Virus record (IMG/VR): IMGVR_UViG_2737471862_000008
Location: 1-24,872 of that record
DNA: 24,872 nt
Direction: 5' to 3' (one strand)
Origin: a virus
Lineage: Duplodnaviria > Heunggongvirae > Uroviricota > Caudoviricetes
Shown here: one piece after another, positions 2,566 through 23,424 of the stretch
Numbering within the stretch: position 1 is the first letter of the stretch
Layout of the letters: the number at the start of each line of letters is the position of its first letter
The notes under the pieces: model-generated
What the model saw: the letters and a program-made list of their open reading frames with translations, nothing else
What the model was told of the DNA's origin: nothing
Databases searched by the model: none
Made by a program: the position numbers and the translations under genes

Positions 2566-2911
2566 TCTCTGCTCCTGTTGATACGGAAAGGGAAACAGGC
2601 ACACCGTTATTACGCCGCCCGGTCAGCCCCACCACCATTGAACCGTCAAAATTGCTTTTAATGGTGATGGAATCCAGCGTCAGCCGTGGCTCCCAGCGAC
2701 TCAGCGCCACATACACTGCCGACATGACCTGCAGGCGTAATGCCGGATTTTGTGGCTGGTCTATCAGTGTCGACAGCAGGGAACCATATTCACGACGGGC
2801 AATGCGGCAACCCTGCGGTGTCAGTAGAATGTCCCGCACCGACTGACGCAGATGGTCAATATCAGTAATGGCTTTACCGCTGGTATTGTTCATCCCGATA
2901 TAAAGCGTCAT
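2552..2911 (-). CDS. W: Baseplate wedge protein W (gp25-like)
   Basis: 119 aa with the gpW-like motif RREYGSLLSTLIDQPQNPALRLQ, in the P2 order V-W-J. Confidence 0.85.
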   Translation of the reverse strand: MTLYIGMNNTSGKAITDIDHLRQSVRDILLTPQGCRIARREYGSLLSTLIDQPQNPALRLQVMSAVYVALSRWEPRLTLDSITIKSNFDGSMVVGLTGRRNNGVPVSLSVSTGAENGSD

Positions 2912-3486
2912 ACCGGGCCTCCGGTTGTATCGCCGCCTTTCAGGACGCCAGTATGCTGATGCGCATCAACCACGATCCCGTTAGAACTCATCGCTCCGCC
3001 GCCCTGGGTAACGCCACCATTGATCACCACTTCGCTGTTAATGCGCGTGCGGTCAGCCTCCAGTACAAACTCACTGGTTTTCATGGTGATGTTGTCAGCG
3101 GCCTCAATGACCATTGATTTGATGCCTCTGACATACCAGCGCCCGGTGGCGGGTTCGTATTCAAACCAGCCACCGTCAGGATGTTCTGTCACGCAGGCGT
3201 CCGCCGACGTCGACGGTGGCGCGAACTGATTCGAATAGATGGCGGGCAGCGCAAACGCGGTTTCCAGATTGCCGCCCATGCTCAGCACCACCACCTGCTC
3301 ATCTGGCGACGGGCACCACCATGTACGGGCACCACCGGCGCGTAACGTCAGCCAGTTAATCCAGTTGGTTTCAAGCTCGCCTACCTTCACCCGGCACAGC
3401 CATTTGTTCCGGTCCACTTCGGTCACAATGCCGGTGCGGATCAGATTGGTGATAAGGCGCATAATTTCTGTGAGTTGTGCGTTCAT
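2908..3486 (-). CDS. V: Baseplate spike/hub protein V
   Basis: Track ORF 2908..3501 trimmed to MNAQLTEIMRLITNLIRTGIVTEV, which aligns with the P2 gpV N-terminus. The C-terminal glycine-rich HTG...GG tail is typical of gpV. The alternative start at 3501 cannot be excluded. Confidence 0.82.
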   Translation of the reverse strand: MNAQLTEIMRLITNLIRTGIVTEVDRNKWLCRVKVGELETNWINWLTLRAGGARTWWCPSPDEQVVVLSMGGNLETAFALPAIYSNQFAPPSTSADACVTEHPDGGWFEYEPATGRWYVRGIKSMVIEAADNITMKTSEFVLEADRTRINSEVVINGGVTQGGGAMSSNGIVVDAHQHTGVLKGGDTTGGPV

Positions 3487-3518
3487 GGTTGCAGTTTGCA
3501 TGAAATCAAAAGAAAATA

Positions 3519-5387
3519 GTGATTTTCAAATTGTATGAAGGGTCTTACAATCCAATGAATTACAATGAAGAGCTAACCTCATATCTTAATTATTTAGTGG
3601 ATCTTGAAAAACCCCCTAATTTCGCAGTAATGATTGACGGCGAATGGGGAAGCGGGAAAACATGGTTTGTCCGTAAATTAATGAATGAAGAATCACTAAA
3701 AAGGGAAGTTAAGCCATTAATGATCTCATTATATGGAATAAAATCCACCGAACAAATTGACGAAATAATTTTCAAGCAAATGCATCCCTTCCTTTCATCT
3801 AAAGGCATGTTGCTTGCTGGCACACTAACTAAGGCACTAATTAAAGGCACACTTAAGATTGATTTAAGTGATTCATTCGTTACAAGTGTAGAGGGCTCCC
3901 CAGAACTACCCAACGTAAGCATTAAAGACTTTTACTACTCACCAGAAAACACCATATTGATATTTGATGATCTTGAACGCTGCGAATTAGATTGGAATTC
4001 TATATTTGGTTATATAAATAATTTCGTTGAAGAAAAAGAATGCAAGGTTTTGATTATCGCCAATGAGAGAGAAATATTAAACCCCGCTAGAAATAAAAAT
4101 CATGATGATATTTATTTAGATGCAAAAGAAAAAGTTATAGGTATAACTTTCAAATATCAACCTCAACATTCTCACGCCTACGAATATTTTCTAAAAAATA
4201 TAACTAGCGAACTCAACACCATTCTGAACATAAAAAATATTGAGAGCTTACTCACTCTTTCAGAGTGTAATAACATTAGATTAATTGAAAGGCAAATTTC
4301 TTTTTTTGAAAGAATATTCAAAATATTACCAGCACAGTTTCAGCAAAATTCAGATTTGACACTCAGATTATATCAATTACATTTTATACTCTATTTTGAA
4401 TCTAATAAAATAAAACGAACCGTTTCTGACTTGTTAACATATAAAATAGATGATGATAATAAATACACATCCAATTTAATTGAAAAATATGGTACAACTT
4501 ATTTGTCAAATTTAATCTTAGACGAGGATACCTGGATCGATATAATTGACAATCAGAAAATCAATCAAGAAAAAATAATATCTGAATTAATAACATTTGT
4601 CAGTGTTTCTAATAAAACAATTGAACCATGGACACAACTTTGGAATTATGATCGATTAAAATACACAGAATTTGAGGAAAATTACAATTCAACACTTCAT
4701 ACGCTTATTAATTTTGAAATATTGAACGAGCATGTTCTTAAGCATATTTACGGATTATTACTTCATTTATCCAGAGAACATATAAAACCCATCAACGAAC
4801 ACTATTTAACAAACTTAGCCCACTCTGCTGTTGATATTTTAGCAGAAAAAGGAATGATACAAACTAGTTATGAAATTTTTGATGAAGACATTAAGGATGA
4901 GCGATGGGGAGGATTAACTTTTCATTGCAAAGAAACTAGGGAATTCAAGGAGCTTGTTAATTACATAGAACAAAAGAAAAATGTATTAATTGCATATCAA
5001 CTTAGCCAAGATGCTCAAAAGATATTCAAATTAATACAGTCCGGAAATCATGAATATTACGCACATCTAAATTTCAACAACAAAGATATTTATTCATTTC
5101 ACGACAAACCAGTTCTTTATTTTGGTGATGCTGAACAACTAACAAAAATGCTGATAGACTCAACCGAAATGCATTTCTTTGGCTATGCTATAAAAAACCG
5201 ATACAACAACACCCATTATCTAAAAGAGCTTTCTGCAGAGCGTTTTTTCCACCGCGAGCTAATTAGAAAGCTAATTGAAAAGAAAACTCAAATAAACTCA
5301 AATATATTATCATTACAAATCGATGAGCTCATAAATGATTGTTTAACTCCCGCAATAGATAAATTAAAGCAAAGCATTGAAAATTAA
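3519..5387 (+). CDS. KAP-family-like P-loop NTPase; AT-rich cargo gene inserted between S and V
   Basis: 622-aa ORF (start may instead be the ATG at 3555). Walker A reads GEWGSGKT, matching the KAP signature GxWGxGK[ST]; Walker B reads ILIFDDLERC, matching hhhhDDLDRC. Base composition is conspicuously AT-rich compared with the flanking tail genes. P2 has no gene at this position. Confidence 0.7.
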   Translation: MIFKLYEGSYNPMNYNEELTSYLNYLVDLEKPPNFAVMIDGEWGSGKTWFVRKLMNEESLKREVKPLMISLYGIKSTEQIDEIIFKQMHPFLSSKGMLLAGTLTKALIKGTLKIDLSDSFVTSVEGSPELPNVSIKDFYYSPENTILIFDDLERCELDWNSIFGYINNFVEEKECKVLIIANEREILNPARNKNHDDIYLDAKEKVIGITFKYQPQHSHAYEYFLKNITSELNTILNIKNIESLLTLSECNNIRLIERQISFFERIFKILPAQFQQNSDLTLRLYQLHFILYFESNKIKRTVSDLLTYKIDDDNKYTSNLIEKYGTTYLSNLILDEDTWIDIIDNQKINQEKIISELITFVSVSNKTIEPWTQLWNYDRLKYTEFEENYNSTLHTLINFEILNEHVLKHIYGLLLHLSREHIKPINEHYLTNLAHSAVDILAEKGMIQTSYEIFDEDIKDERWGGLTFHCKETREFKELVNYIEQKKNVLIAYQLSQDAQKIFKLIQSGNHEYYAHLNFNNKDIYSFHDKPVLYFGDAEQLTKMLIDSTEMHFFGYAIKNRYNNTHYLKELSAERFFHRELIRKLIEKKTQINSNILSLQIDELINDCLTPAIDKLKQSIEN

Positions 5388-5412
5388 AACAAAGCCCAGA
5401 TCGCCACTGGGC
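5386..5412 (-). terminator. Putative rho-independent terminator of the O-to-S late operon
   Basis: Hairpin GCCCAG-ATCGCCA-CTGGGC at 5394..5412, followed on the minus strand by TTTGTTTT. Lies just downstream of the S stop and overlaps the stop of the convergent KAP gene. Confidence 0.4.
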
Positions 5413-5427
5413 AACAATATACGCAAG

Positions 5428-5871
5428 TTATGAAATACAATATATCAAAAATCTCTCAACTTCTTTTTTAATAGGCTCATTAATACCTAGCAAGCATCGT
5501 CTGGAATAATGAACTATCGGCCCACGTTTACTGACACGATCACGCAGTCCATAATGGTGAACACGGGCAATGCGCTGCACCTTACCTTCAAACTGCACGC
5601 TGGCAGAATCGGCGCTGGCGGCAGTTTTCAGGTATTTTGTGGTGCGCAGCTTCGCAAACATCTGACGTTTGATGCGGCCTTTTTTACTGCGCGCTGTTAC
5701 CCGTCGCGGCTCATAACTACTGCCATCTGGATTGCGCTGCATCCTGATGTTTTGCTGCTGTGTCCGGCGCAGCTCCTGTGCCAGTTGGCGCATCATGCGA
5801 CTTCTTGCAGCTGGCTCCAGATTCGCCAGTAAGGCACTCAGCCAGTCGTCCACTTTCTGCAGTTCAGCCAC
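5428..5871 (-). CDS. S: Tail completion protein S
   Basis: 147 aa, MAELQKVDDWLSALLANL... with RxxQQQNIRMQRNPDGS, in the P2 position after R. The last ~15 to 20 codons are encoded by AT-rich DNA. Confidence 0.8.
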   Translation of the reverse strand: MAELQKVDDWLSALLANLEPAARSRMMRQLAQELRRTQQQNIRMQRNPDGSSYEPRRVTARSKKGRIKRQMFAKLRTTKYLKTAASADSASVQFEGKVQRIARVHHYGLRDRVSKRGPIVHYSRRCLLGINEPIKKEVERFLIYCIS

Positions 5872-7906: not shown

Positions 7907-8110
7907 TCAGTCCCATAGCTGGACGGTCTGCACGGTGGTGGTGGTCGGAATATCCGGCAGCTCCACCTGCAGCCCGTGAGGTAAAAAGGGGCCGTATTCG
8001 GCAAGCCCCGGATTTGCCTTCAGTACCTGCTCCGTGACACCCTGCGTGCGCCCGTAATGACGCCAGCAAAGCGCGTCCACCGTGTCATACTGATGCGCAC
8101 GCACTTTCAT
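7907..8110 (-). CDS. X: Tail protein X
   Basis: 67 aa, the same size and position as P2 gpX (between L and Y). Start overlaps the L stop. Confidence 0.75.
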   Translation of the reverse strand: MKVRAHQYDTVDALCWRHYGRTQGVTEQVLKANPGLAEYGPFLPHGLQVELPDIPTTTTVQTVQLWD

Positions 8111-8574
8111 CAGATAAGCTCCACTGTGCAGTGCGGCGCATCCTGCACCCGGCTGATGGCCCAGCGGGCGTCACGCCACAAATCACCGCTTGCTTCCGCC
8201 AGTTCCTCGCCCCGCTTCACACCGGACGCCGTGGCGTCATAGTCCTGGTAACGTTCGTTGAGCATGGCGCGTGCCCAGCAGTAAACCGCGTTGAAATAGT
8301 GCTGAATGCGCTCACTTTTGCCGTCCAGCTGTTCCGCCGGAACCTCAGCCAGCGACACATACCCCAGCATCTGCTGACGTCTGCGAAACTCATACAGCTC
8401 TGCGTTGACCTCCGAAATTGCCGACAGTGCAACCTGCTTTAAACGCGGCTGCGTCACCGTGCCGTCAGTGCGCATCACGCTGCGAAACTCCGACAGGTCC
8501 ACATCAGGCCAGAACGGCGTATTTCTGATGATTTCCGCCTGTTCCGGTGCCTGTTCTGGCGCAACAAACTTCAT
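8110..8574 (-). CDS. L: Head completion/stabilisation protein L
   Basis: Track ORF 8110..8637 trimmed to MKFVAPEQ..., preceded by AGGAGA. Position after M and before X as in P2. Confidence 0.8.
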   Translation of the reverse strand: MKFVAPEQAPEQAEIIRNTPFWPDVDLSEFRSVMRTDGTVTQPRLKQVALSAISEVNAELYEFRRRQQMLGYVSLAEVPAEQLDGKSERIQHYFNAVYCWARAMLNERYQDYDATASGVKRGEELAEASGDLWRDARWAISRVQDAPHCTVELI

Positions 8575-8669
8575 GCTGCTTTCTCCTGAAATAGAGGGCG
8601 GTGGACGGGGTTTTGATGTGGCAGTGCCTTTCGCCACCCCGTGCCGCCCGTGCGCGGGGGCACGTTCTG

Positions 8670-9320
8670 TCAGCGGCTGTCATTGCGCAGTCTGCGCTCC
8701 AGCTGCTGTTTGTCTTTTTTCACGCCACAGCGGGGATCGAGCTGTAACGCATGGTTGAGATGATTAAGGGCGGAAGCCGGATTGCTTTCACTCAGGACAG
8801 CGCCAATCGCTTTATGCAGACGCGCCCGTGACTGGTCCGGCATATCCAGACCGTCTGTCAGCTCCAGCGTCTGCAGCAACAGATCGGCATTAAAGCCGGT
8901 GGCGGCAAGCATTGCGCTCTGCGCGGCGTCTGCCATTTCCTCTGCCAGCACGGTCTGCACGTTGCGGTTACCCAGCGGCATCACCCAGCCATGACGCAGG
9001 GCATGACGCCCGATCTCCAGCGCCCCGGCATAATCTCCGGCATCAATGCGCCACAGCATCACGTACATCAGCACGTCATCCTGTTGAGCGCCTCCGGCAG
9101 CCAGGACACCCTCTGCCCAGGCGGCGTACTTCGGCAGCAGCTCCACCTTGATTTCCGCTTTTTTGACCGTGGACTGAACGCCCTTGAGACGGCGGCGGTC
9201 TTCCGCCAGTTGCAGCAGCATCAGGTCATAGCCCGATGCGTGGCGAACACTGCCGCCCTCGCGGGCGGCCTGTTCAGCCTGAACGCGCAGGCGATGCTGC
9301 CGTGCGGGACTCAGGCTCAT
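8670..9320 (-). CDS. M: Terminase small (endonuclease) subunit M
   Basis: 216-aa ORF directly after N in the P2 order O-N-M-L. Confidence 0.78.
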   Translation of the reverse strand: MSLSPARQHRLRVQAEQAAREGGSVRHASGYDLMLLQLAEDRRRLKGVQSTVKKAEIKVELLPKYAAWAEGVLAAGGAQQDDVLMYVMLWRIDAGDYAGALEIGRHALRHGWVMPLGNRNVQTVLAEEMADAAQSAMLAATGFNADLLLQTLELTDGLDMPDQSRARLHKAIGAVLSESNPASALNHLNHALQLDPRCGVKKDKQQLERRLRNDSR

Positions 9321-9323
9321 GGA

Positions 9324-10382
9324 TTACTCTCCGGTTTCTGCTGCGGCGGCGCTGAAATCGCCAATCTGGATGTTTTCCACCAGTGCGGCGCAGCGGTAGT
9401 CCTCAACCACATAGGCTTCGTTAACGGATTCAAAGTTTTCAATCCGGTCACGTTTCGGGTTGTCGATAACTGAACGGCGGCGGGTGTCTTCCTGCCAGTA
9501 GATGGACAGGTTATCCAGACGGGTGATCAGCAGCGCATTCGGCGGGAAGAACGGCGCACGCACGGCCTGCAGGCCTCCCATGCGTTTCTGACTGATGATC
9601 ATATCGGCAGCCAGTTTTTCACTGTTTTCCTGCTCTTTGTTAACCAGCGGGAAATACTTGTCAGACAGCAGTTCACGCCCGCAAATCACCACCAGATCGT
9701 CATCGTCCTGGTAGACCACGTCGATAAGCTCATTGACGGCATCCATCACCACGGCGTCCAGGTTGGCATATTCGCCACCTTTCCCGACTTTCACCGCACC
9801 CGGTGTGGTTTCACCGCCCGTGGTGGTGCTGCCCATGACGTGATCCGGTGCATCCTCACGGATTTTCTGCAGCCAGCCTTTATTCACATCCTGCAGTAGC
9901 GGGTTTTCGCTACGGTTGGAGGTTTTCGCACGCTTCACGCCGTTAAAGCCGATCATGATGCGGTCCAGTGCCTGACGTTTCACGATGGCGTCACGGATAC
10001 GCACCTGAAAATCCTGAAACTTCGCCCACAGGTCCAGCTTCGCGTAGGTCAGTACCGTGTCAAAGTTGGTCTGCTCGCATTTGTATTCCACATCGACCAT
10101 CAGCGTCGGATCGACAGGTTCACGCTCTTTCGCGGTGGTATCAGTGGTTCCGGCAATGGTGCTGCCAACTCCCAACCCCAGCAGCTGACCGGACTGCTCA
10201 GTCACTGGCGTGACGTTAATCAGCGTCAGGAAAGCGGCGGACTGCTGGATCTGGTCTTCCAATGTCTGCTGCACGGACGGCTCTACGGTGAACTTGCTGG
10301 ACAGTTCTTCAACTGCCACACCGTTCAGACGCGCCAGTTGCTGCAGGTAAGCGTTAAAAGCAAAGCGGGTATTCTTCTTCAT
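9324..10382 (-). CDS. N: Major capsid protein N
   Basis: 352 aa (P2 gpN is about 357 aa), with a conserved MKKNTRFAFNAYLQQLARLNGV start. Confidence 0.9.
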   Translation of the reverse strand: MKKNTRFAFNAYLQQLARLNGVAVEELSSKFTVEPSVQQTLEDQIQQSAAFLTLINVTPVTEQSGQLLGLGVGSTIAGTTDTTAKEREPVDPTLMVDVEYKCEQTNFDTVLTYAKLDLWAKFQDFQVRIRDAIVKRQALDRIMIGFNGVKRAKTSNRSENPLLQDVNKGWLQKIREDAPDHVMGSTTTGGETTPGAVKVGKGGEYANLDAVVMDAVNELIDVVYQDDDDLVVICGRELLSDKYFPLVNKEQENSEKLAADMIISQKRMGGLQAVRAPFFPPNALLITRLDNLSIYWQEDTRRRSVIDNPKRDRIENFESVNEAYVVEDYRCAALVENIQIGDFSAAAAETGE

Positions 10383-14224: not shown

Positions 14225-14563
14225 TTAACAAACAGCGTATAAACCATCAAATCCAACGGAATGAACCTTTTTTGATGCTACTTCATTGCTACGGCGTTGG
14301 ATCACTTTTGCAATACTTTTTAAAATTGAAGGGGATGCATTGCGAACCTTAACCTGACTCAAAACTTTGGTTACACCGAATTTCACTACCAAAACACCAA
14401 AGATTTCATCAGAGTATGATTCTGAAATTGAATAAACACCGCTCAGGTCTAAATCTACGGTATACCCTTCTTTAATGAACCCTTCAATCTTGTGTCGTTG
14501 GGGGATAGCCTGATTGCGCGAAGCCAGGTCACCCTCGGGTAACTTGTATGCGATTTTGTTCAT
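14225..14563 (-). CDS. Small STAS-like (anti-sigma-antagonist-like) protein; second gene of a two-gene cargo operon
   Basis: 112 aa. Start overlaps the upstream gene's stop (TAATG) and follows GGAGGAG. The motif VDLDLSGVYSISESYSDEIFGVLVV resembles the STAS/DUF4325-type hLDhsGV..hssSFaDEhfG core. Recalled similarity, not computed. Confidence 0.5.
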   Translation of the reverse strand: MNKIAYKLPEGDLASRNQAIPQRHKIEGFIKEGYTVDLDLSGVYSISESYSDEIFGVLVVKFGVTKVLSQVKVRNASPSILKSIAKVIQRRSNEVASKKVHSVGFDGLYAVC

Positions 14564-15537
14564 TACTCTCCTCCTAACGCCCGCATTATTTCCATAAGCT
14601 GAGGGTCATTTTCTTCGCTATCTTTATCGACTGCCAGTTCATGAATCTTAAAACGGCAAGAAATTGCTACACCCGGCCATTCAGTACGTAATTCAGTATA
14701 GCTCACTTCATCACCTATTGCTTCTAAGCATACATTTCCTGAAGCCAGTTGCAATTCCCCATTATATGTTTTTATCAATTTCATCAAGTGATATAACCCA
14801 AGCCCTTGATGATTATTATCTTTTTCTTTGACCGAAACCCCGTGACCAAACACACTACCCCCAATAAAATCCTGGGGAAGTTGCTGTGCCCAATCATCCT
14901 GCAAATCAGCATGCTTAGATGAATGTCCCTCTTGAATACACCATGCGATCGCATCCTGGTGAGTCTCAATTCCGGGTATACCAGCTCGCCGCAATTCTCG
15001 GAGAAATCCTAACCCACAGTCCGCCAAAGAAAATTCTAAATAGTGCTCTTTTCTTTGTGTGTGGGGTACAGCCGAACGTTGTGCAAAAGAAAAACCCGTT
15101 GATTTTCCATGCGACCAAACGTTATCGTGAAGCTCACCTATAACATGTGTTAGATCTGTAAGTCCCTTGGGATAATCTCTCGGATCACGATCAGGGAATG
15201 TTAACTGCCTTACACAACTGTTAATACTACCAGTGGCAACGTCAACAGCTTCAACATTGGTTAATGCTGTAACCAAACTGTAATTTCTCCCAACATTTAC
15301 ACGTTCCTGTTGATACTGATCCTCGCCCCATAAAGCACCATGTAAATTGATAGCCCGCATATAGTCAGGGCATGACAAAACGCAGTTATCTTCGGTAATT
15401 TTGTGATGATTCACGTAAGCTGCTAAGACAGTGATAAAACCAGGATGCCAATGGTTGTTTGGCAATTGCAATTCATTAGTTTCCTTTTGATGAAACGCAG
15501 CGGTATGCACAATAGCGTCTTTTAATCCTAACCCCAT
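14563..15537 (-). CDS. GHKL-type (histidine-kinase/anti-sigma-kinase-like) ATPase with an N-terminal domain of unknown function
   Basis: 324 aa. Bergerat-fold motifs are visible: N-box GELHDNVWSHG, G1 box LADCGLGF, G2 box HQGLGLYHL. The first ~130 aa have no recognisable motif. Lower GC than the phage backbone. Confidence 0.6.
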   Translation of the reverse strand: MGLGLKDAIVHTAAFHQKETNELQLPNNHWHPGFITVLAAYVNHHKITEDNCVLSCPDYMRAINLHGALWGEDQYQQERVNVGRNYSLVTALTNVEAVDVATGSINSCVRQLTFPDRDPRDYPKGLTDLTHVIGELHDNVWSHGKSTGFSFAQRSAVPHTQRKEHYLEFSLADCGLGFLRELRRAGIPGIETHQDAIAWCIQEGHSSKHADLQDDWAQQLPQDFIGGSVFGHGVSVKEKDNNHQGLGLYHLMKLIKTYNGELQLASGNVCLEAIGDEVSYTELRTEWPGVAISCRFKIHELAVDKDSEENDPQLMEIMRALGGE

Positions 15538-15566
15538 GAACCGAACCTTTTTTATGCATTTTTCTT

Positions 15567-15595
15567 ATCATATAACTTAGGACTGATCAGCGCAA
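15567..15595 (-). promoter_or_regulatory. Candidate sigma70 promoter of the GHKL/STAS operon
   Basis: On the minus strand: TTGCGC, 17 nt, TATGAT, about 30 nt upstream of the ATG at 15537. Prediction by eye only. Confidence 0.3.
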
Positions 15596-15649
15596 AGATC
15601 CCGACACTCTTGAATCATACTAAATTAAGGCCTATACCACACAGCGCGC

Positions 15650-15672
15650 GCTCGTATCCCCGCCACGCCTGC
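15650..15672. other. cos-like sequence (candidate cohesive-end site of the phage genome)
   Basis: The minus-strand reading of 15658..15669 is GGCGTGGCGGGG. That equals the first 12 nt of the 19-nt cohesive end I recall for phage 186 (GGCGTGGCGGGGAAAGCAT); P2 has GGCGAGGCGGGG. The match decays after 12 nt. It sits in a GC-rich island between two AT-rich cargo modules. Confidence 0.4.
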
Positions 15673-15711
15673 CCGCTTTATGTAGCGGTTTTCATGCGCC
15701 TGCATGACATA

Positions 15712-15738
15712 AGCAAAATCCCGCCACTCCTGGCGGGC
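15712..15738 (-). terminator. Putative rho-independent terminator of the membrane-protein cassette
   Basis: Hairpin CCCGCCA-CTCC-TGGCGGG, followed on the minus strand by ATTTTGCTT, about 90 nt downstream of the 15830 stop. Confidence 0.4.
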
Positions 15739-15829
15739 CTCAGCTAAAACGATCCTCAAACGATCATGCGGATTCATGCGGCATAGACATGCACAATCTC
15801 CAAAGCGGGCATCGAGACTTTTTGGAAAC

Positions 15830-16441
15830 CTACGTAACCACAGTTAATGTGTGCATCCTGTCTCGAATTGCATCACACGTCTCATCAAAAAGCTTGGTGA
15901 TGGTTGTATGGTTCAACTCCGCCTCTTTCCAATAATTTTGCCCGTCAAATTCTGGATCGCTATGCTTAAACGATATTGACTCTGAAAGGCATTCCTTCCG
16001 GAAACGGTCCAAGATTATATAAACCTCTGGTGAGATGAACGGTTTGTTAGATTCAACACTTGTAACAAAAGTGTTAAATGCATCAGAAAAAACTTTCAAC
16101 CTTCTAAATTTTCTCTCTTCAAATGGTTCGTTGGGGTCAACATGATCCAGCGCAGGCCTCAGCTTAAGCACGCTTTCTCTGGTTTCAAACATCGAATTCC
16201 AAATGAGACTATATGCTGATAACTCCTTATCAAAATACGCTTTCGTTACATAAACAGAATTGTCTAACTTAGCCTTTATTCTTTCATTAGTTGCACTCAG
16301 TTGTGATTGAAATTCAGCAATATCTTTGTTTAGCCGCGACTTATATCTTTCTAAATAAACTTTCCCGATCCAAACAAATATGCCAGATGCAACAAAAGAC
16401 ACCCCACCCAACGAAGCCAGAACTTTAAAGACTAAATCCAT
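15830..16441 (-). CDS. Membrane-anchored protein of unknown function (single N-terminal TM helix plus ~175-aa soluble domain); single-gene cargo cassette
   Basis: 203 aa. N-terminal hydrophobic helix VLASLGGVSFVASGIFVWIG, then a charged coiled-coil-like region. RBS GGTGGGGG precedes the ATG. AT-rich. Lies where P2-family phages carry variable genes (tin/old position). Confidence 0.55.
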   Translation of the reverse strand: MDLVFKVLASLGGVSFVASGIFVWIGKVYLERYKSRLNKDIAEFQSQLSATNERIKAKLDNSVYVTKAYFDKELSAYSLIWNSMFETRESVLKLRPALDHVDPNEPFEERKFRRLKVFSDAFNTFVTSVESNKPFISPEVYIILDRFRKECLSESISFKHSDPEFDGQNYWKEAELNHTTITKLFDETCDAIRDRMHTLTVVT

Positions 16442-16470
16442 TGCGCCCCCACCTGCAAAAATAGTATTCC

Positions 16471-16497
16471 ATTATAAGCTAATACATTTTTAATCAA
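16471..16497 (-). promoter_or_regulatory. Candidate sigma70 promoter of the membrane-protein cassette
   Basis: On the minus strand: TTGATT, 15 nt, TATAAT, about 30 nt upstream of the ATG at 16441. Spacer is short; by-eye prediction. Confidence 0.3.
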
Positions 16498-16705
16498 ACA
16501 GGGGATAATTCGCGTCAACCTCATCACTTCTCTGCTCTACCCTAGTGACTTCCATCAAAAACCCCAGGCCGTCATATAGCGAAACGGGGAATTCCAGCTC
16601 AAGCCAGAAGCAGTCTTCATAGATGCGGCCCAACCAAAAACCTCCGCCACACTCCTTTGGGCGTTGAAAGAAAACCCAGTCGCCAAGGGTTAAACGTTCC
16701 AGCAC
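16490..16705 (-). CDS. Hypothetical small protein (possibly a gene remnant)
   Basis: 71-aa ORF with no recognisable motif and an uncertain start. Its 3' end overlaps the predicted promoter of the next cassette. Confidence 0.25.
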   Translation of the reverse strand: MLERLTLGDWVFFQRPKECGGGFWLGRIYEDCFWLELEFPVSLYDGLGFLMEVTRVEQRSDEVDANYPLFD

Positions 16706-16823
16706 CTAGCCCCGATAAATAATCTGGTGATTACTGTCTTTTTTACCCATGGCTAACGCCTCGCTACTCTCGTTGTTCAACCTTGCTGACGTCAGATTCA
16801 AGTTCTTACATCAGGAACGTTCC

Positions 16824-17057
16824 TTAGTGCAGCCAGCTGTCGTCTTCCCAAACCTGTTGCATAATTTCCATCACCCGCTTTTTGTCTTCATCAAGCTTTA
16901 AGCCACTCAGCTCAACGCCGTTTGCCGACCCTTTACGGATGCGGATAGCGGTCTTGGGATAGATGGGTTGCAGGTTGCGGTAAAGCTCGGACTCCAGAGC
17001 GTCCAGGGTAGACTGGCTAATCTTCTGCTCTTTATCGATCATTATTTCAATGCGCAT
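16824..17057 (-). CDS. DinI-family protein (DinI / Tum C-terminal-domain-like)
   Basis: Track ORF trimmed to MRIEIMIDKEQ...: 77 aa. Alignable by eye with E. coli DinI (MRIEVTIAK...IDAL.GEL.RR.Q..FP......VR........V.G..K.DK.R...ILQETWE..D.W). Confidence 0.75.
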   Translation of the reverse strand: MRIEIMIDKEQKISQSTLDALESELYRNLQPIYPKTAIRIRKGSANGVELSGLKLDEDKKRVMEIMQQVWEDDSWLH

Positions 17058-17067
17058 AAAAGTCACC

Positions 17068-17256
17068 TCAGCTGATGACATCCATTGAGCGGTTGTATTC
17101 GTGGCTTCTGATTTTTGCCATGAGTTCATCAGTCAATTCAGAAACCCACTGCAGGGCCAGCCCCTTCTCTTCATCACTACACTCACTAGCCGCTACAAGC
17201 TTAAGAAAAAAATCAATGCGCTGGAGCTTCAAAGACTCCAAAAAATAGTCCTGCAT
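17068..17256 (-). CDS. Small protein upstream of the DinI-like ORF; candidate N-terminal part of a Tum-like antirepressor
   Basis: Track ORF trimmed to MQDYFLESLKLQ... (62 aa), which follows a strong RBS AGGAGGAAAG. In a different frame from the DinI-like ORF. Downstream of a LexA box. Confidence 0.5.
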   Translation of the reverse strand: MQDYFLESLKLQRIDFFLKLVAASECSDEEKGLALQWVSELTDELMAKIRSHEYNRSMDVIS

Positions 17257-17297
17257 CTTTCCTCCTATGACACCGCAAACAATACTGTACAGATAAC

Positions 17298-17340
17298 CAC
17301 TGTTTATATTTACAGTATATGATAATCTTACTGATGTAAA
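17298..17340 (-). promoter_or_regulatory. SOS promoter: LexA box overlapping the -10 of a sigma70 promoter
   Basis: Minus strand reads TTTACA (-35), 17 nt, TACTGT (-10). The LexA box TACTGTAAATATAAACAGTG (CTGT-N8-ACAG; consensus TACTGTATATATATACAGTA) covers the -10, about 45 nt upstream of the 17256 ATG. Confidence 0.6.
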
Positions 17341-17409
17341 ACGTTTTTTTACGTTCATCAGCCTGATATGCCTGGTATTATTAAGAGCACGAATTGTTAA
17401 CCCGCGTAA

Positions 17410-19824
17410 TTAATACAGGTTCCGCCACTTATCATCTTCCTGCAAACGCTGGTTCCGATAGAAGACACGCAGGCCTGCTCCTGACGGAATACTGCCGCCG
17501 CGAAGGAGTAAATCGACCTCTTTCTCGCTGCCATCAAATCCTCTGGACTTCAGTTCATAGACGAGCTGCTGTCGTTGATGGTCTGTAATTCGCTGTTTGT
17601 AGTCTCTACGCCGTTTCGGTTTCACCAGGCGTAACCTTGCAGCCAGTTCCCGGCGCTCTTTTTTGTTCATACTGTGCAGGTAATCGTGCAACTCCTTGTC
17701 ATCCATGTGGGTAATGTCCGTTCTGGTATCCCCATCAGCTGATTTGTCTTTCCCTTGTTGGTTCAAATTTTCAGCAAGGGGACAGTTATTGCCACGAGTC
17801 CAAGGGGCGCAAGCGCCCTGGTCGGCTGCCGCCTCCTGAACGTCAACGGCCTTACGAACCATTTTCCACTTCACGGCATGAGTGCAGATCTTGCCCTCTG
17901 CAATAGGTGACCAGATGCCATAAATACGAATGCCGTGATCGCCATAGGCGGTCGGCTCTTCGTTGATTTCATAAGCAGTTCTGATGAGGTGATATTTGCG
18001 GGGAACCAGTACGCCACCCTGCTTCATGATGTAGGTGGCAAAACAACCAGCATCAGCAGCAGCCAGAATGGCATCAAGGCGCGGGTTATCCAGTACCGGC
18101 GCACCTGCTTTTTTGTCCCCCTGTTGCCTTGCCGCCTGACCAGCCAGCAATCGCAGTTCACGGTAAGCCTGACGCCCCGGAATGCCAAAGAAGCGGAATT
18201 GCTGAACACGATGCAGAGACGCCCAGGCATTAACGTATTCAGCATTATCACGCAGGGATTTCCCCGTTTCCTTGCTGATCTCGCCAGCCAGACCACGCCC
18301 GTCAATGTTCTTACTGATGTATTTCGCGATGTAGCTTGTTGGCGTACCTTTGCGCGGGTTAATCAACTCAGACTTAAAGCGCGGCCCAGTGTTATTGCCC
18401 AGCTCCTCGCGGTCTTCACGGATGGCAAACTTACGCAGTAATGCAGTGATGGTGCGGCGGTCTTTTTTGCGCATAAAACACAACAGGTGCCAGTGAACTG
18501 TACCGTCATGATGCGGCTCAGCCACCCGCACGCCATACCACCGCAATCCGGCTTTGTGCATCGCCTTACGAAATGCAGCAAACATGCCGACCAGATAATC
18601 ACTGCTTTGTCTTACCGTCGCATTTGTCCAGGTTGGGTTGGGCCTGCCGTTATTTAGCGTGGAATGGAAACGTGACGGACAGGTGATGGTGTAGAAAACG
18701 GCGCAGTCACCGCGCATTTCCGCGATAAGCTCCAGACCTTTAACACAGGCCATCATCTCATTGCGGCGATGCGCTGGGTTGCTGCTGCTGGCGTTTACCA
18801 CATCCTCCATGTCCAGCGTGTCGCCGTCTTCGTTCACCAGTTCATGAGAACGGAAAAACTCCAGCGACTTACGGCGCTGCTCACGTTTATGCATCACGGC
18901 TTCATAGCTGACATAAGGAGATGCTTTTTTGCTGACAAGGCAGACTGCACGCAACTGCTCTTCCCGCCATTCGCAACGCATCTTCCATAATTTCCGATAC
19001 CACCAGTCGGCGCACAACATACGCGCCAGCGAACCCGGAATGAGTTCATAGGGCACGGGTTTACGGCGGTTTCTTTTCCGACGGAGTTGCTCAAACGCAG
19101 GCGGGATGACATCCAGACGCAGGGTTTCCGCTGCCACCCTTTCCCATGTATTGCGGATTTCTTCTGGCTTAACGTCATCGGTGGCATACAAATCGCCACA
19201 AGCGGCATCAAGGCACATACTCATATGCGCAGCTACCAGGGTGGACAGGCGTTTCACCTGATCCTGACTCATTTCAGGCAGGATCAGCAGGCCGTCCAGC
19301 CCTTCATGGCTTGCCATAAAGCGAAAAGATGCAGATAGCTGACTGTCGCGTACATGCTCCAGTCGTTCCAGACATGGCTTAATCGTCTCACGTAAATAGC
19401 GGGAATAAGCCTTTGGCCTGCCCAGGCTGCTGAAGTATTCAATACGTTGCATCAGCGGCTTGCTGATATGGGAAGGCTGGGCGTTGACGTCCGCCAGAAT
19501 GACCATATCCGGATTAAAACGCTGCTGCTCATGCGCCAGCTTTGCCCGACTAATGAGCTTATCCTGTTCCATTTCGCGCTGGACAGGATCACGGGATTCA
19601 TTAAAGAAATAACGCTCCCAGACCTGATCACTCAGCGCCTCACGGCGCAGCTGTTCCTGCTCGTTATCGGCAGCGTACAGAGTGATCAGGTTTGAAAGCG
19701 TAGAAACCGGCGCAACTTCCACCGGGTCCAGATAAGGGTTAATGGCCTTTTTCGGGCTGTTCCATGAGAACGATGCGGCAGCTTCGTTAAAGCCGCAGCA
19801 GTTGTTCATATCGGCATGACTCAT
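17410..19824 (-). CDS. A: Replication initiation protein A (rolling-circle nicking endonuclease)
   Basis: 804-aa ORF in the P2/186 position of gene A. Start ATG overlaps the Dam stop (ATGA). Confidence 0.88.
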
Positions 19825-20678
19825 GCACGTACTCCGTACACGGCAGAACTATCCACGCCACGCGAATAATCAAATCCCACCCAGCAGCGCGGCCCGGAAA
19901 CAGCAATGATTTCTGTTGCTGATTTACCCTCGCCAGCTGCCACACCGATGCTGCGTTTTGCCTTGATGTAGTGGTGAGTAAAATTGCGATACAGCGAACG
20001 GATCAGGGATGTGTCACTGTTAGAAACAATGACCGGATGTCCTTCTGATGACCGATGTTCAAGAACAGATGCCAGGTGATACTGGTCATCTTCAGTGAAG
20101 CCGTCAGTGTGATAGCCGGAAAACGTACCGTCATACGGCGGATCGCAATACACCACATCCCCCGCCTTCAACATCGCCAGCGTTTCATCAAAGCTGGCGC
20201 AGATAAACGTTGCTCGCTGGGCCTTTTCTGCAAATGCGCGAATTTCTTTTTCAGGGAAATACGGATTTTTATAATTACCGTAGGGAATGTTGAAATGCCC
20301 GCTCTTGTTATAACGACATAAACCACGGTAACCGTGACGATTGAGATACAGGAAATATACCGCTTTCATGAAATCAGTAATTTCAGTTGAGTAATTAAAC
20401 TCCTGCCTTATGTTGTAATAAGCCACCTCCCTGTTTGCGATCTCAAATAAAACTCTGGCGCGAGATATAAACGATTCACAATCAGCGGCAACCTTTTTAT
20501 AGAGGTTGATTAAATCAGGATTAATATCCGCAACCAGATAGCTGGGATAATCCGTCTCCATCATCACAGCACAGGAACCCGCGAAAGGTTCAACCAGTCG
20601 CGGGCCAGCAGGAAGATGTTTTTTCAGTTCGGACATTATGGCAGTTTTATTTCCCGCCCATTTCAGGATGGTGCTCAT
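19821..20678 (-). CDS. dam: DNA adenine methyltransferase (Dam-like, N6-adenine)
   Basis: Track ORF trimmed to [11 protein letters not shown]..., preceded by GGAGGT. Motifs [30 protein letters not shown] and the catalytic DPPY closely track E. coli Dam. Confidence 0.85.
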
Positions 20679-20902
20679 ACAGCACCTCCGTTGTAATGTT
20701 TGCCTTTCAGCTCTGCGATTTCCTGACAGGTAATGCAAAGCTGCACACCCGGAATGGCACGGCGGCGTGCTGGCGGAATTGGCGCTTCACACTCAATGCA
20801 AAGCACGCGGGACACGCCCGGCGTTTTGGCACGGGCAGCACGGATATGGCGTTGGCGTTCTTCTTCAACGCGCTGCTGTACGAGATCCATTGCATCAGCC
20901 AT
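20675..20902 (-). CDS. TraR/DksA-type C4 zinc-finger protein
   Basis: 75 aa with CIECEAPIP...CITCQ (CxxC-N17-CxxC). P2 carries a comparable zinc-finger ORF upstream of A. Confidence 0.65.
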   Translation of the reverse strand: MADAMDLVQQRVEEERQRHIRAARAKTPGVSRVLCIECEAPIPPARRRAIPGVQLCITCQEIAELKGKHYNGGAV

Positions 20903-22729: not shown

Positions 22730-22854
22730 GATGCAACATTCCTCGTTTAATGATGATTAATCAGGACGAATACGGATCGTTTGTATTTTGTGAACACCAT
22801 AAACATACGATCGCACAATGAAATCGTCAAGATAAAAGTTCACTTGGAGTGACC
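22730..22854. promoter_or_regulatory. Lysis-lysogeny switch region (early and repressor promoters and operators)
   Basis: 125-bp AT-rich gap between the divergently arranged apl-like and cI genes. Contains repeated GATCG/ATCG motifs at about 22775, 22809 and 22823. Promoters not resolved. Confidence 0.4.
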
Positions 22855-23424
22855 ATGAATTTGGAGAAAGGCGGACGAGGCGCTATAGAGCGCATGGTAG
22901 AAGCTTATGGATTCAAAACTCGACAGGCGTTGTGCGATCATTTAGGAATCTCTAAAAGTACACTCGCCACACGCTACATGCGTGACTCATTCCCAGCAGA
23001 ATGGGTAATCCAGTGCGCCCTTGAAACGGGCACCTCGCTTAATTGGCTCACAACCGGACATGGTTCAAAGCAAACTTCAGGTAATACAAATACTATGGAA
23101 GTTGCTAAATATGTATTATCTGATGGTGCCTTGCGTGAAGACGGTTTTTATATTTTTGATAAGGGATTTTTACCCTCTACGTTTAAAAAACCTTTTGTCA
23201 TCACAGATAACAATTCTGAATTTATTTGTGATAAAGAATTTGATGATATACGTGATGGTAAATGGGTAATAAGTATTGATGGCGAAGTAACGATCCGTGA
23301 CATTACTCGTTTACCCGGTGGAAGAATCTTCGTCGAGGGTGGAAACAGAGCCTTCGAATGTAAGATAGAAGACATTGAAATAATTGGTAAAATTATAAGT
23401 TTAACAGTCAAGTATGTTAAATAG
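22855..23424 (+). CDS. cI: Immunity repressor CI (186-type, ~190 aa)
   Basis: Track start GTG at 22849; the ATG at 22855 follows GGAG. N-terminal HTH (TRQALCDHLGISKSTLATRYMRD) plus a C-terminal domain. Its size matches 186 CI (192 aa), not P2 C (99 aa). Confidence 0.7.
   Translation: MNLEKGGRGAIERMVEAYGFKTRQALCDHLGISKSTLATRYMRDSFPAEWVIQCALETGTSLNWLTTGHGSKQTSGNTNTMEVAKYVLSDGALREDGFYIFDKGFLPSTFKKPFVITDNNSEFICDKEFDDIRDGKWVISIDGEVTIRDITRLPGGRIFVEGGNRAFECKIEDIEIIGKIISLTVKYVK

Follow-up and report, generated by a model that had tools for sequence, protein, structure and literature searches.

A probable anti-phage KAP-family ATPase gene as cargo of the orf30 slot in a P2/186-like Escherichia coli prophage

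In a 24,872-nucleotide stretch of viral DNA (IMG/VR record IMGVR_UViG_2737471862_000008; this whole stretch is called the window below), an AT-rich gene for a P-loop nucleoside triphosphatase (NTPase) of the KAP family lies between the P2-like tail genes S and V, on the strand opposite to theirs. What would such a gene be doing between two tail genes: does it serve the tail, defend the lysogen against other phages, or play another part? We conclude that the gene is genuine, foreign and selectively maintained, and that it is carried by a P2/186-like E. coli prophage in the slot that holds orf30 in P2. It is probably defence cargo, encoding a predicted anti-phage ATPase. It is plausible as ordinary cargo of this sort, from a candidate family that is already catalogued, and not as a new kind of system.

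Results

A genuine and foreign gene between S and V

The open reading frame (ORF) list of the window contains one uninterrupted, stop-free frame at 3519-5387 on the plus strand. At the local base composition (A 0.40, T 0.30), 610 stop-free codons would arise by chance with a probability of about 5e-23, and the longest open run in the remaining five frames over the gene is 113 codons. A first-pass annotation, made by a model from the sequence alone, had described a gene of ~1.9 kb, AT-rich and antisense, between S and V; the ORF, its overall GC content of 0.31 and the Pfam assignments of its neighbours bear this out. Of the span given there, the stop at 5387 stood, and the start had to be moved. 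The alignments to PADLOC and PHROGs profiles begin at residue 14 of the ORF counted from 3519, the RefSeq annotation of three E. coli chromosomes gives this gene 610 amino acids, corresponding to window 3555-5387, and a 97%-identical database cluster also has 610 amino acids. The start was therefore placed at 3555, the GTG at 3519 being a mechanical extension of the ORF only; positions 3519-3554 belong to the late promoter region of V.

GC content along the gene ranges from 0.26 to 0.35, as against 0.54-0.58 in the flanks, and rises again beyond it; the flanking genes S, R and V have values of 0.50, 0.54 and 0.57, respectively, and GC at third codon positions is 0.27 in the KAP gene versus 0.66 in V. 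The gene is antisense to V, S and R, which are all on the minus strand, and it is the sole gene of the 2-kb module between V and S. It is missing from phages whose flanks are 92-93% identical to those of the window. Among 5426 complete E. coli genomes, 1069 carry the tail and lysis segment of this phage, and the window version of the KAP gene is present in just 10 of these (identity ≥ 98.7%). The window accordingly stems from a prophage of E. coli or of a very close relative. The possibility, raised with the first-pass annotation, that the gene might turn out to be a conserved tail component is thus not supported: it is foreign cargo.

For the same reasons, it is extremely improbable that the protein is an accessory ATPase that helps to assemble the tail or baseplate. 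Only the position between S and V speaks for it. It is contradicted by the opposite strand and foreign base composition, by the lack of the gene in 1059 of the 1069 E. coli genomes with the tail segment and in closely related isolated phages, by the filling of the same slot with unrelated genes in other phages, and by the existence of homologues in cyanobacteria, Flavobacterium, Vibrio gene-cassette arrays and plasmids with no phage genes nearby. Since strand, composition, rarity and non-phage homologues all agree, we regard a structural part in the tail as practically excluded.

The protein matches the PDC-S49 family over its full length

The assignment to the KAP P-loop NTPases (Aravind et al. 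2004) was upheld by profile search. Pfam PF07693 (KAP_NTPase) aligned with residues 19-240 of the 622-residue ORF at 61.7 bits (cut-off 20; E 8.7e-17), and the PADLOC model PDLC05029, which represents the candidate family PDC-S49, aligned with residues 14-618 over profile positions 3-617 of 619 (E 2.4e-135). Two further PDC-S49 models, PDLC05031 (E 5.8e-134) and PDLC05030 (E 8.2e-75), were also matched, and the close and distant homologues that we tested all matched the same three models. At E ≤ 1, the PADLOC scan returned only PDC-S49 and a marginal mad8 match, and none to Tmn, PifA or QatA; the PifA model was certainly included, having matched another cargo protein, and Tmn models are presumed to be included as well. 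A scan against NCBIfam gave no meaningful match, and the sole match in PHROGs was to a family of unknown function.

The two nucleotide-binding motifs named in the first-pass annotation are indeed present (Table 1), with a Walker A of the form GxxGxGK[ST] and a Walker B of the type hhhhDDL[DE]R; DDLDR is the signature of the KAP family. The absence of transmembrane helices was confirmed too, the highest 19-residue Kyte-Doolittle mean over the whole protein being 0.98. Helices of this kind near the NTPase domain are typical for KAP proteins, PifA being an accepted exception. At the position that they occupy in most KAP NTPases, after Walker A, the window protein has an insert (residues 77-105) that is its most hydrophobic stretch and among its best-conserved ones. 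We considered an amphipathic, membrane-binding helix in this insert and rejected it, because the hydrophobic moment there is 0.15-0.32, as compared with a protein mean of 0.26.

The AlphaFold2 model had a mean predicted local distance difference test score (pLDDT) of 85 and was poor only at residues 84-125 (pLDDT < 50). It gave an all-helical C-terminal part, but not an informative fold match: a profile of 58 homologues compared with all PDB sequences found nothing below E 0.9, and a Foldseek search of PDB with the full model yielded only weak matches to the ATPase core (TM-score 0.2-0.3). The C-terminal domain contains residues that are invariant in the 58 homologues (N240, R242, E282, W359, L362, P519, R549 and Y550). 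We propose from the model that the protein is a cytoplasmic KAP-type P-loop ATPase with an AAA+/STAND-like core and a helical C-terminal domain.

The S/V junction is the orf30 cargo slot of P2

According to the first-pass annotation, S and V are adjacent in P2 and their junction is not a familiar cargo site. Neither statement holds. The order in P2 (NC_001895) is S, the terminator of the O operon, the antisense and nonessential orf30, the activator site of pV, and V; the window has this layout with a different cargo gene (terminator 5412-5394, dyad 3532-3549, V from 3486). Position and layout are thus identical in the two phages, but the P2 Orf30 protein is unrelated to the window KAP protein. 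The locus has long been described as a site of horizontal transfer, being one of three loci, together with the TO and Z regions, at which P2-like phages commonly have genes that P2 lacks and that were presumably acquired horizontally (PMC3091744); a further case of orf30 replacement has been reported (PMC6823313). Empty and otherwise filled S/V sites exist in relatives without loss of phage genes.

The S-V distance, a check suggested with the first-pass annotation, was surveyed among species representatives. A scan with the S protein gave 75 loci, 67 of which also carry V, and 0.66-3.4 kb lie between S and V in 32 of these 67 P2-like loci. The cargo has a lower GC content than its flanks (0.32-0.39 vs 0.47-0.63 in the enterobacterial loci), and in 25 of the 32 filled loci all of it is antisense. 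Joint clustering of the cargo proteins with three others, namely the window KAP protein and those carried by Klebsiella phage Kp4865-2 and phage Cartapus, gave 41 unrelated clusters. PADLOC models were matched by 9 of 20 representative cargo proteins; the matches were to Septu PtuA/PtuB, PARIS AriA/AriB, a SIR2/ThsA-like protein, PDC-S15, PDC-S20, PDC-S31 and, weakly, an ApeA-like protein. In the second survey, an evenly spaced sample of the 1069 E. coli genomes provided 57 rows that span both flanks, in which the slot was empty in 29 cases and filled in 28. The RefSeq names of this E. coli cargo include TIR-domain, SIR2, GmrSD/DUF262, AAA ATPase with or without DUF4435, FRG, DUF5677 and DUF6216 proteins. 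The slot of Cartapus holds an unrelated 176-amino-acid gene, and that of Kp4865-2 (L002, 2314-3825) an unrelated 503-amino-acid P-loop protein with the motif GRKGTGKT. The latter gene runs in the same direction as the tail genes and gave marginal AAA_7 and ORC-CDC6-like matches, with no convincing match in PADLOC.

We also observed a DUF6216-family gene in the S/V slot of a P2-like element of the E. coli B strains BLR(DE3), BL21-AI and BL21 Star (H117-H119). Common expression hosts may therefore carry an uncharacterised cargo gene at this site.

Recent papers on defence hotspots of P2 name the gpA-Q, Z/fun and tail-cI loci, and in the recent literature on these hotspots that we searched the orf30 slot is not singled out. 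The landmarks of one such paper were the Q-L operon, the integrase and the primase only; everything 'downstream of gpL', amounting to 16% of P2 systems, was consequently pooled and was ascribed there to the Z/fun site.

Relatives of the gene are widespread, and a copy in a prophage remnant is under purifying selection

At E ≤ 1e-30, 705 cluster representatives matched the PDC-S49 family; among the 150 matches listed, most have 600-650 amino acids and align over nearly their full length. They come from Gammaproteobacteria, cyanobacteria, Flavobacterium and other groups, and from plasmids. In the isolated-phage collection, a protein search found no full-length relatives, only partial KAP-domain matches in Burkholderia, Campylobacter and Bacillus phages. 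The neighbours of the homologues are unrelated to one another and no partner gene is shared. A Vibrio cholerae copy sits among DUF645 and DUF3709 cassettes, and two Pseudomonas copies are in islands that also encode serine recombinases, both small and large, as well as a HigB toxin and a methyltransferase.

Several members were found in P2-like elements. A 61%-identical copy occupies the S/V slot of another P2-like phage, a member with 27% identity occupies that of another enterobacterium (L024), and a further one lies between gpA and the portal gene, i.e. in the gpA-Q hotspot, of a related prophage in E. coli KE47 (L095, NZ_CP141089.1, 8947-10890). The KE47 homologue is followed by a 384-amino-acid ORF without a PADLOC match; its sequence record is filed in PLSDB as a 4.9-Mb 'plasmid' and is evidently a chromosome.

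An intact, 60%-identical copy is present in a P2-like prophage remnant of ~10 kb that has no head, lysis, sheath or replication genes. Between this copy and the phage-borne, 61%-identical one, the ratio of nonsynonymous to synonymous substitution rates (dN/dS) is 0.14 at dS 0.56. The gene has thus been maintained since the death of the phage. The remnant (L083-L085; JGI 3300011513, SRR28250344 and GCA_032085535.1) carries its PDC-S49 gene, of 618 amino acids, at 8001-9857, retains ogr, a tail-fibre fragment, I, J, fragments of W, V and S, cI and the integrase, and adjoins rimK, nfsA and grxA. It looks like a case of domestication of the defence gene.

Boundaries of the module and its control region

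DNA identity to empty-site phages (blastn) stops exactly at 3486, the start of V, and similarity returns only at 5530; with Cartapus, which has different cargo, it is found from 5449 on (88.7%). The V start at 3486 is that of RefSeq in three genomes, and an extension to 3501 is spurious. The exchanged module (Table 1) consists of the pV region and the KAP gene, followed by the terminator and by the ~34 codons at the end of S (5428-5529), which are AT-rich and unlike the empty-site allele. As one end of the module falls within the final codons of S and the other at the start codon of V, the pV region and this end of S have been exchanged together with the cargo, in a slot that is filled in about half of the sampled prophages.

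The C-terminal 12-34 codons of gpS were seen to change with the cargo in the survey loci (L004-L078; L001, 2819-2930) and to be AT-rich in the filled slots. An essential tail gene thus contains one of the end points of recombination. Different cargoes can share a similar S tail, as do the window and Cartapus.

Table 1. Features of the S/V region, with coordinates in the window
Feature	Position	Strand	Basis
KAP-family P-loop NTPase gene, 610 amino acids, PDC-S49 member	3555..5387	+	Pfam, PADLOC; RefSeq name 'P-loop NTPase fold protein'
Walker A GEWGSGKT, residues 29-36	3639..3662	+	G29, W31, G32, G34 and K35 invariant in 58 homologues
Walker B / KAP signature IFDDLERC, residues 136-143	3960..3983	+	D138, D139, E141 and R142 invariant in 58 homologues
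Conserved non-membrane insert HPFLSSKG...KGTLKIDL, residues 77-105	3783..3869	+	Conservation, hydropathy, pLDDT
C-terminal all-alpha domain, residues 225-610 (386 residues), presumed sensor or partner-binding domain	4227..5387	+	Predicted
Baseplate spike gene V	2908..3486	-	Pfam Phage_base_V and Apex; start ATG 3486
Divergent control region: late promoter pV of the V operon, presumably also the KAP promoter	3487..3554		Conservation, P2 layout
TGT-N12-ACA dyad (TGTATGAAGGGTCTTACA), presumed Ogr/late-activator site of pV	3532..3549		Position and conservation
Intrinsic terminator of the S (O-type late) operon: hairpin 5412-5394, then TTTGTTTTAATTTT	5376..5412	-	Sequence; P2 equivalent
Tail completion gene S	5428..5871	-	Pfam Phage_tail_S; gpR beyond
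Exchanged module, relative to empty-site phage 500465-1 (flanks 93% identical; 173 bp there)	3487..5529		blastn boundaries

The control region between V and the KAP gene is conserved in three KAP-bearing loci although their KAP proteins are only ~60% identical, and the annotated pV activator site of P2 sits in the equivalent place. The dyad has its centre ~54 bp upstream of the V ATG; for the annotated P2 site, the corresponding distance to the V start is ~57 bp. Phage 500465-1, whose site is empty, and Cartapus have a dyad of the same kind with the same spacing, and the dyad is kept in the two further KAP-bearing loci. As a statistical signal, TGT-N12-ACA was dropped, since 6 copies were found in the window where 6.8 were expected; the dyad was thus assigned by position and conservation only. 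Of the five other copies, two fall in the P/O region of divergent promoters, an expected location of late promoters. At the other end of the KAP gene, the hairpin at 5394-5412 is the only terminator-like site of the region. It is oriented so as to end the S operon, its T-tract overlaps the final codons of the KAP gene, and the terminator annotated for the O operon of P2 is located correspondingly, between S and orf30.

In P2 (L091, 2240-2309), the annotated transcription start of pV coincides with the first base of the coding sequence of V, and the spacing from dyad to ATG in the window (3486-3549) nearly equals that in P2. For this reason, the V mRNA of this group of phages may be leaderless or near-leaderless.

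Discussion

The case for a defence function and its weak points

The defence reading is strengthened by three observations: the full-length match to PDC-S49, the presence of defence systems in the same slot of other phages, and the occurrence of a family member in the gpA-Q hotspot. The PDC set comprises 145 candidate systems, which were defined by their embedding inside BREX, DISARM or type I restriction-modification loci (Payne et al. 2024 preprint). Two experimental precedents point in the same direction. KAP NTPases with C-terminal regions of unknown function, validated in 2026, protect Enterococcus faecalis against phages, and both Walker B and the C-terminal region are needed for this (PMC13552941); 'Reve', a single-gene KAP system from a P4 hotspot, protects E. 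coli (PMC13586616).

Several points weigh against this reading. The standing of PDC-S49 as a defence family is that of a candidate, a prediction from 'guilt by embedding', and the literature that we searched does not mention PDC-S49. Of the 20 representative cargo proteins of the slot, only the 9 mentioned above match PADLOC, several of them through candidate families. The namesake P2 Orf30 (261 amino acids) has no defence or Pfam match, and the variable hotspots of P2 also hold cargo unconnected with defence, such as a cytolethal distending toxin and a DNA methylase. The E. faecalis protein EF_KAP has transmembrane helices and the window protein has none (PMC13552941). The 386-residue C-terminal domain lacks a relative of solved structure as well as any recognisable effector fold or domain, so that any mechanism is drawn from analogy. 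Expression is a further difficulty. A 2026 preprint describes AT-rich foreign genes of enteric bacteria, immunity genes among them, as often silenced by H-NS. A scan for sigma-70 promoters gave as many sites as expected from shuffled sequence and no convincing promoter for the KAP gene; weak sigma-70-like hexamers occur at 3523-3551, but the lone upstream site is too close to the ATG, the best match would place the transcription start after the KAP ATG, and these hexamers are not functional evidence.

We considered the possibility that the gene is a moron with a role other than defence, such as interference with satellites or plasmids or a contribution to lysogen fitness, or that it is a selfish gene in a tolerant slot. 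The toxins, methylases and receptor-binding modules carried at variable loci of P2-like phages fit this idea, as do the roughly one half of sampled cargo proteins without a defence annotation and the fact that orf30 of P2 has no assigned function. Yet the protein matches over its full length a family defined by embedding in BREX, DISARM and type I restriction-modification loci, members of this family are met with repeatedly, in the gpA-Q defence hotspot as well as in recombinase islands, and related KAP architectures protect against phages experimentally (PMC13586616, PMC13552941). Purifying selection on the copy in a dead prophage moreover argues for a benefit to the host. On balance, we find a role outside defence decidedly improbable.

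How the protein might act

The slot is a gap between two late operons, downstream of the S-operon terminator and upstream of the activator-dependent promoter pV. Antisense cargo placed there would leave late transcription uninterrupted and could be transcribed on its own in the lysogen. In the mechanism that we favour, which is built on the predicted fold and on analogy, the helical C-terminal domain would recognise a protein or complex of a superinfecting phage, and this recognition would trigger ATP-dependent oligomerisation of the NTPase domains. Hydrolysis of ATP would then remodel or sequester the target, or drain the ATP pool, and phage development would be blocked. The ATPase itself would be the effector, probably by means of the conserved insert that replaces the usual membrane hairpin of KAP proteins. 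Walker A, Walker B and the C-terminal domain would all be expected to be required.

The main mechanistic rival is a PifA-like membrane route, in which the protein would defend the cell by associating, once it senses a phage protein, with the inner membrane or a membrane partner, so that leakage or loss of membrane function would lead to abortive infection, with death or arrest of the infected cell. PifA is a KAP phage-exclusion protein without transmembrane helices for which membrane depolarisation and nucleotide leakage have been reported (PMC13001434), and the most hydrophobic and most conserved stretch of the window protein (77-105) is exactly where KAP proteins insert membrane helices. This insert is nevertheless too weakly hydrophobic (Kyte-Doolittle maximum 0.98) and not notably amphipathic, the PifA model of PADLOC was not matched, and EF_KAP, the one KAP protein tested in this respect, was reported not to act by abortive infection (PMC13552941). 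We therefore regard the membrane route as unlikely.

Going beyond the cytoplasmic mechanism, we tentatively link two ideas, which may both be true although we have more doubt than confidence in the pair: that PDC-S49 is a soluble class of KAP defence proteins using the ATPase as the weapon through the insert 77-105, and that the orf30 slot is a fourth defence hotspot of P2-like phages. If so, the mode of action of PDC-S49 would differ from those of PifA, of Tmn and of STAND proteins armed with nuclease, TIR or SIR2 domains.

Comparison with known systems

With the catalogued PDC-S49 proteins, the window protein shares architecture, length and single-gene state, and structurally there is no difference; its setting in the orf30 slot of a prophage adds to the contexts by which the family was defined. 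The EF_KAP-type proteins (PMC13552941), with which it was compared by description only, likewise combine an N-terminal KAP NTPase with a large C-terminal region devoid of known domains or structural matches, and they adjoin small serine recombinases, as do the Pseudomonas homologues of the window protein. EF_KAP differs in that its model has two transmembrane helices, of which one lies within the NTPase domain. PifA of the F plasmid, which excludes T7, is also a KAP NTPase without transmembrane helices that is borne by a mobile element and acts alone (PMC13001434), but its C-terminal region is different. Reve (PMC13586616), again compared by description only, is a single-gene KAP protein from a hotspot in P2/P4 mobile elements that protects E. 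coli against several phage families; it is P4-borne and was not recognised by the defence databases of its authors, whereas the window protein is prophage-borne and recognised by PADLOC. In QatABCD, QatA is a KAP NTPase; the window protein did not match it, and its neighbours are V and S only.

The first-pass annotation had regarded Tmn as a KAP NTPase and the window protein as its soluble variant, which proved mistaken. Tmn belongs to the YobI family; its P-loop domain contains two transmembrane helices, and it assembles in the membrane as a Mg2+-exporting decamer (PMC13001434). The two have in common that they are single-gene P-loop NTPases, Tmn being a defence protein (Gao et al. 2020; Wu et al. 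2026 preprint), but the window protein is KAP by Pfam, soluble and without a match to a Tmn model. In Tmn, Walker A is essential and helical 'arm' regions are thought to sense a phage protein (PMC13001434). The closest experimental precedents for the window protein are the EF_KAP-type proteins, Reve and PifA, which are better analogues than Tmn.

These findings extend current views and overturn none, the orf30 cargo slot having been known in P2 biology for decades. Their main value lies in a clean test case for PDC-S49 and in the evidence for the orf30 slot as a rich defence hotspot. A positive test would make PDC-S49, with at least 705 sequence clusters in many phyla, a validated defence family, and the KAP gene occurs naturally in E. 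coli lysogens such as APEC IMT5155, with coliphages as its natural opponents. Having neither a membrane anchor nor a recognisable effector, the protein would also offer a convenient entry point to the role of KAP ATPases in immunity. Since the slot holds recognised systems (Septu, PARIS, SIR2, TIR and GmrSD) alongside many unannotated genes, it could be mined in the way the gpA-Q hotspot has been.

Other loci in the window

The prophage has cargo of its own in the gpA-Q (TO) hotspot as well, at 14225-17358, where the GC content is low (0.37-0.46). A 112-amino-acid DUF4325 (STAS-like) ORF overlaps by one base a 324-amino-acid ORF without a family, and a 203-amino-acid ORF has no match; the only PADLOC match was a marginal one to a DrmA fragment. 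This cargo could be a second, unrecognised defence locus.

Directly upstream of gpA, at 19821-20738, is a gene for a 305-amino-acid DNA methyltransferase that matches the orphan and type II methyltransferase models of PADLOC (E 3e-111); no ORF for a partner nuclease was seen in the adjoining ORFs. The window also encodes a DinI-like protein, which we take to be Tum, at 16824-17129 and a 186-type CI repressor (Phage_CI_repr and Phage_CI_C) at 22849-23424. On account of these two proteins, the immunity region resembles that of the SOS-inducible phage 186 and not that of P2.

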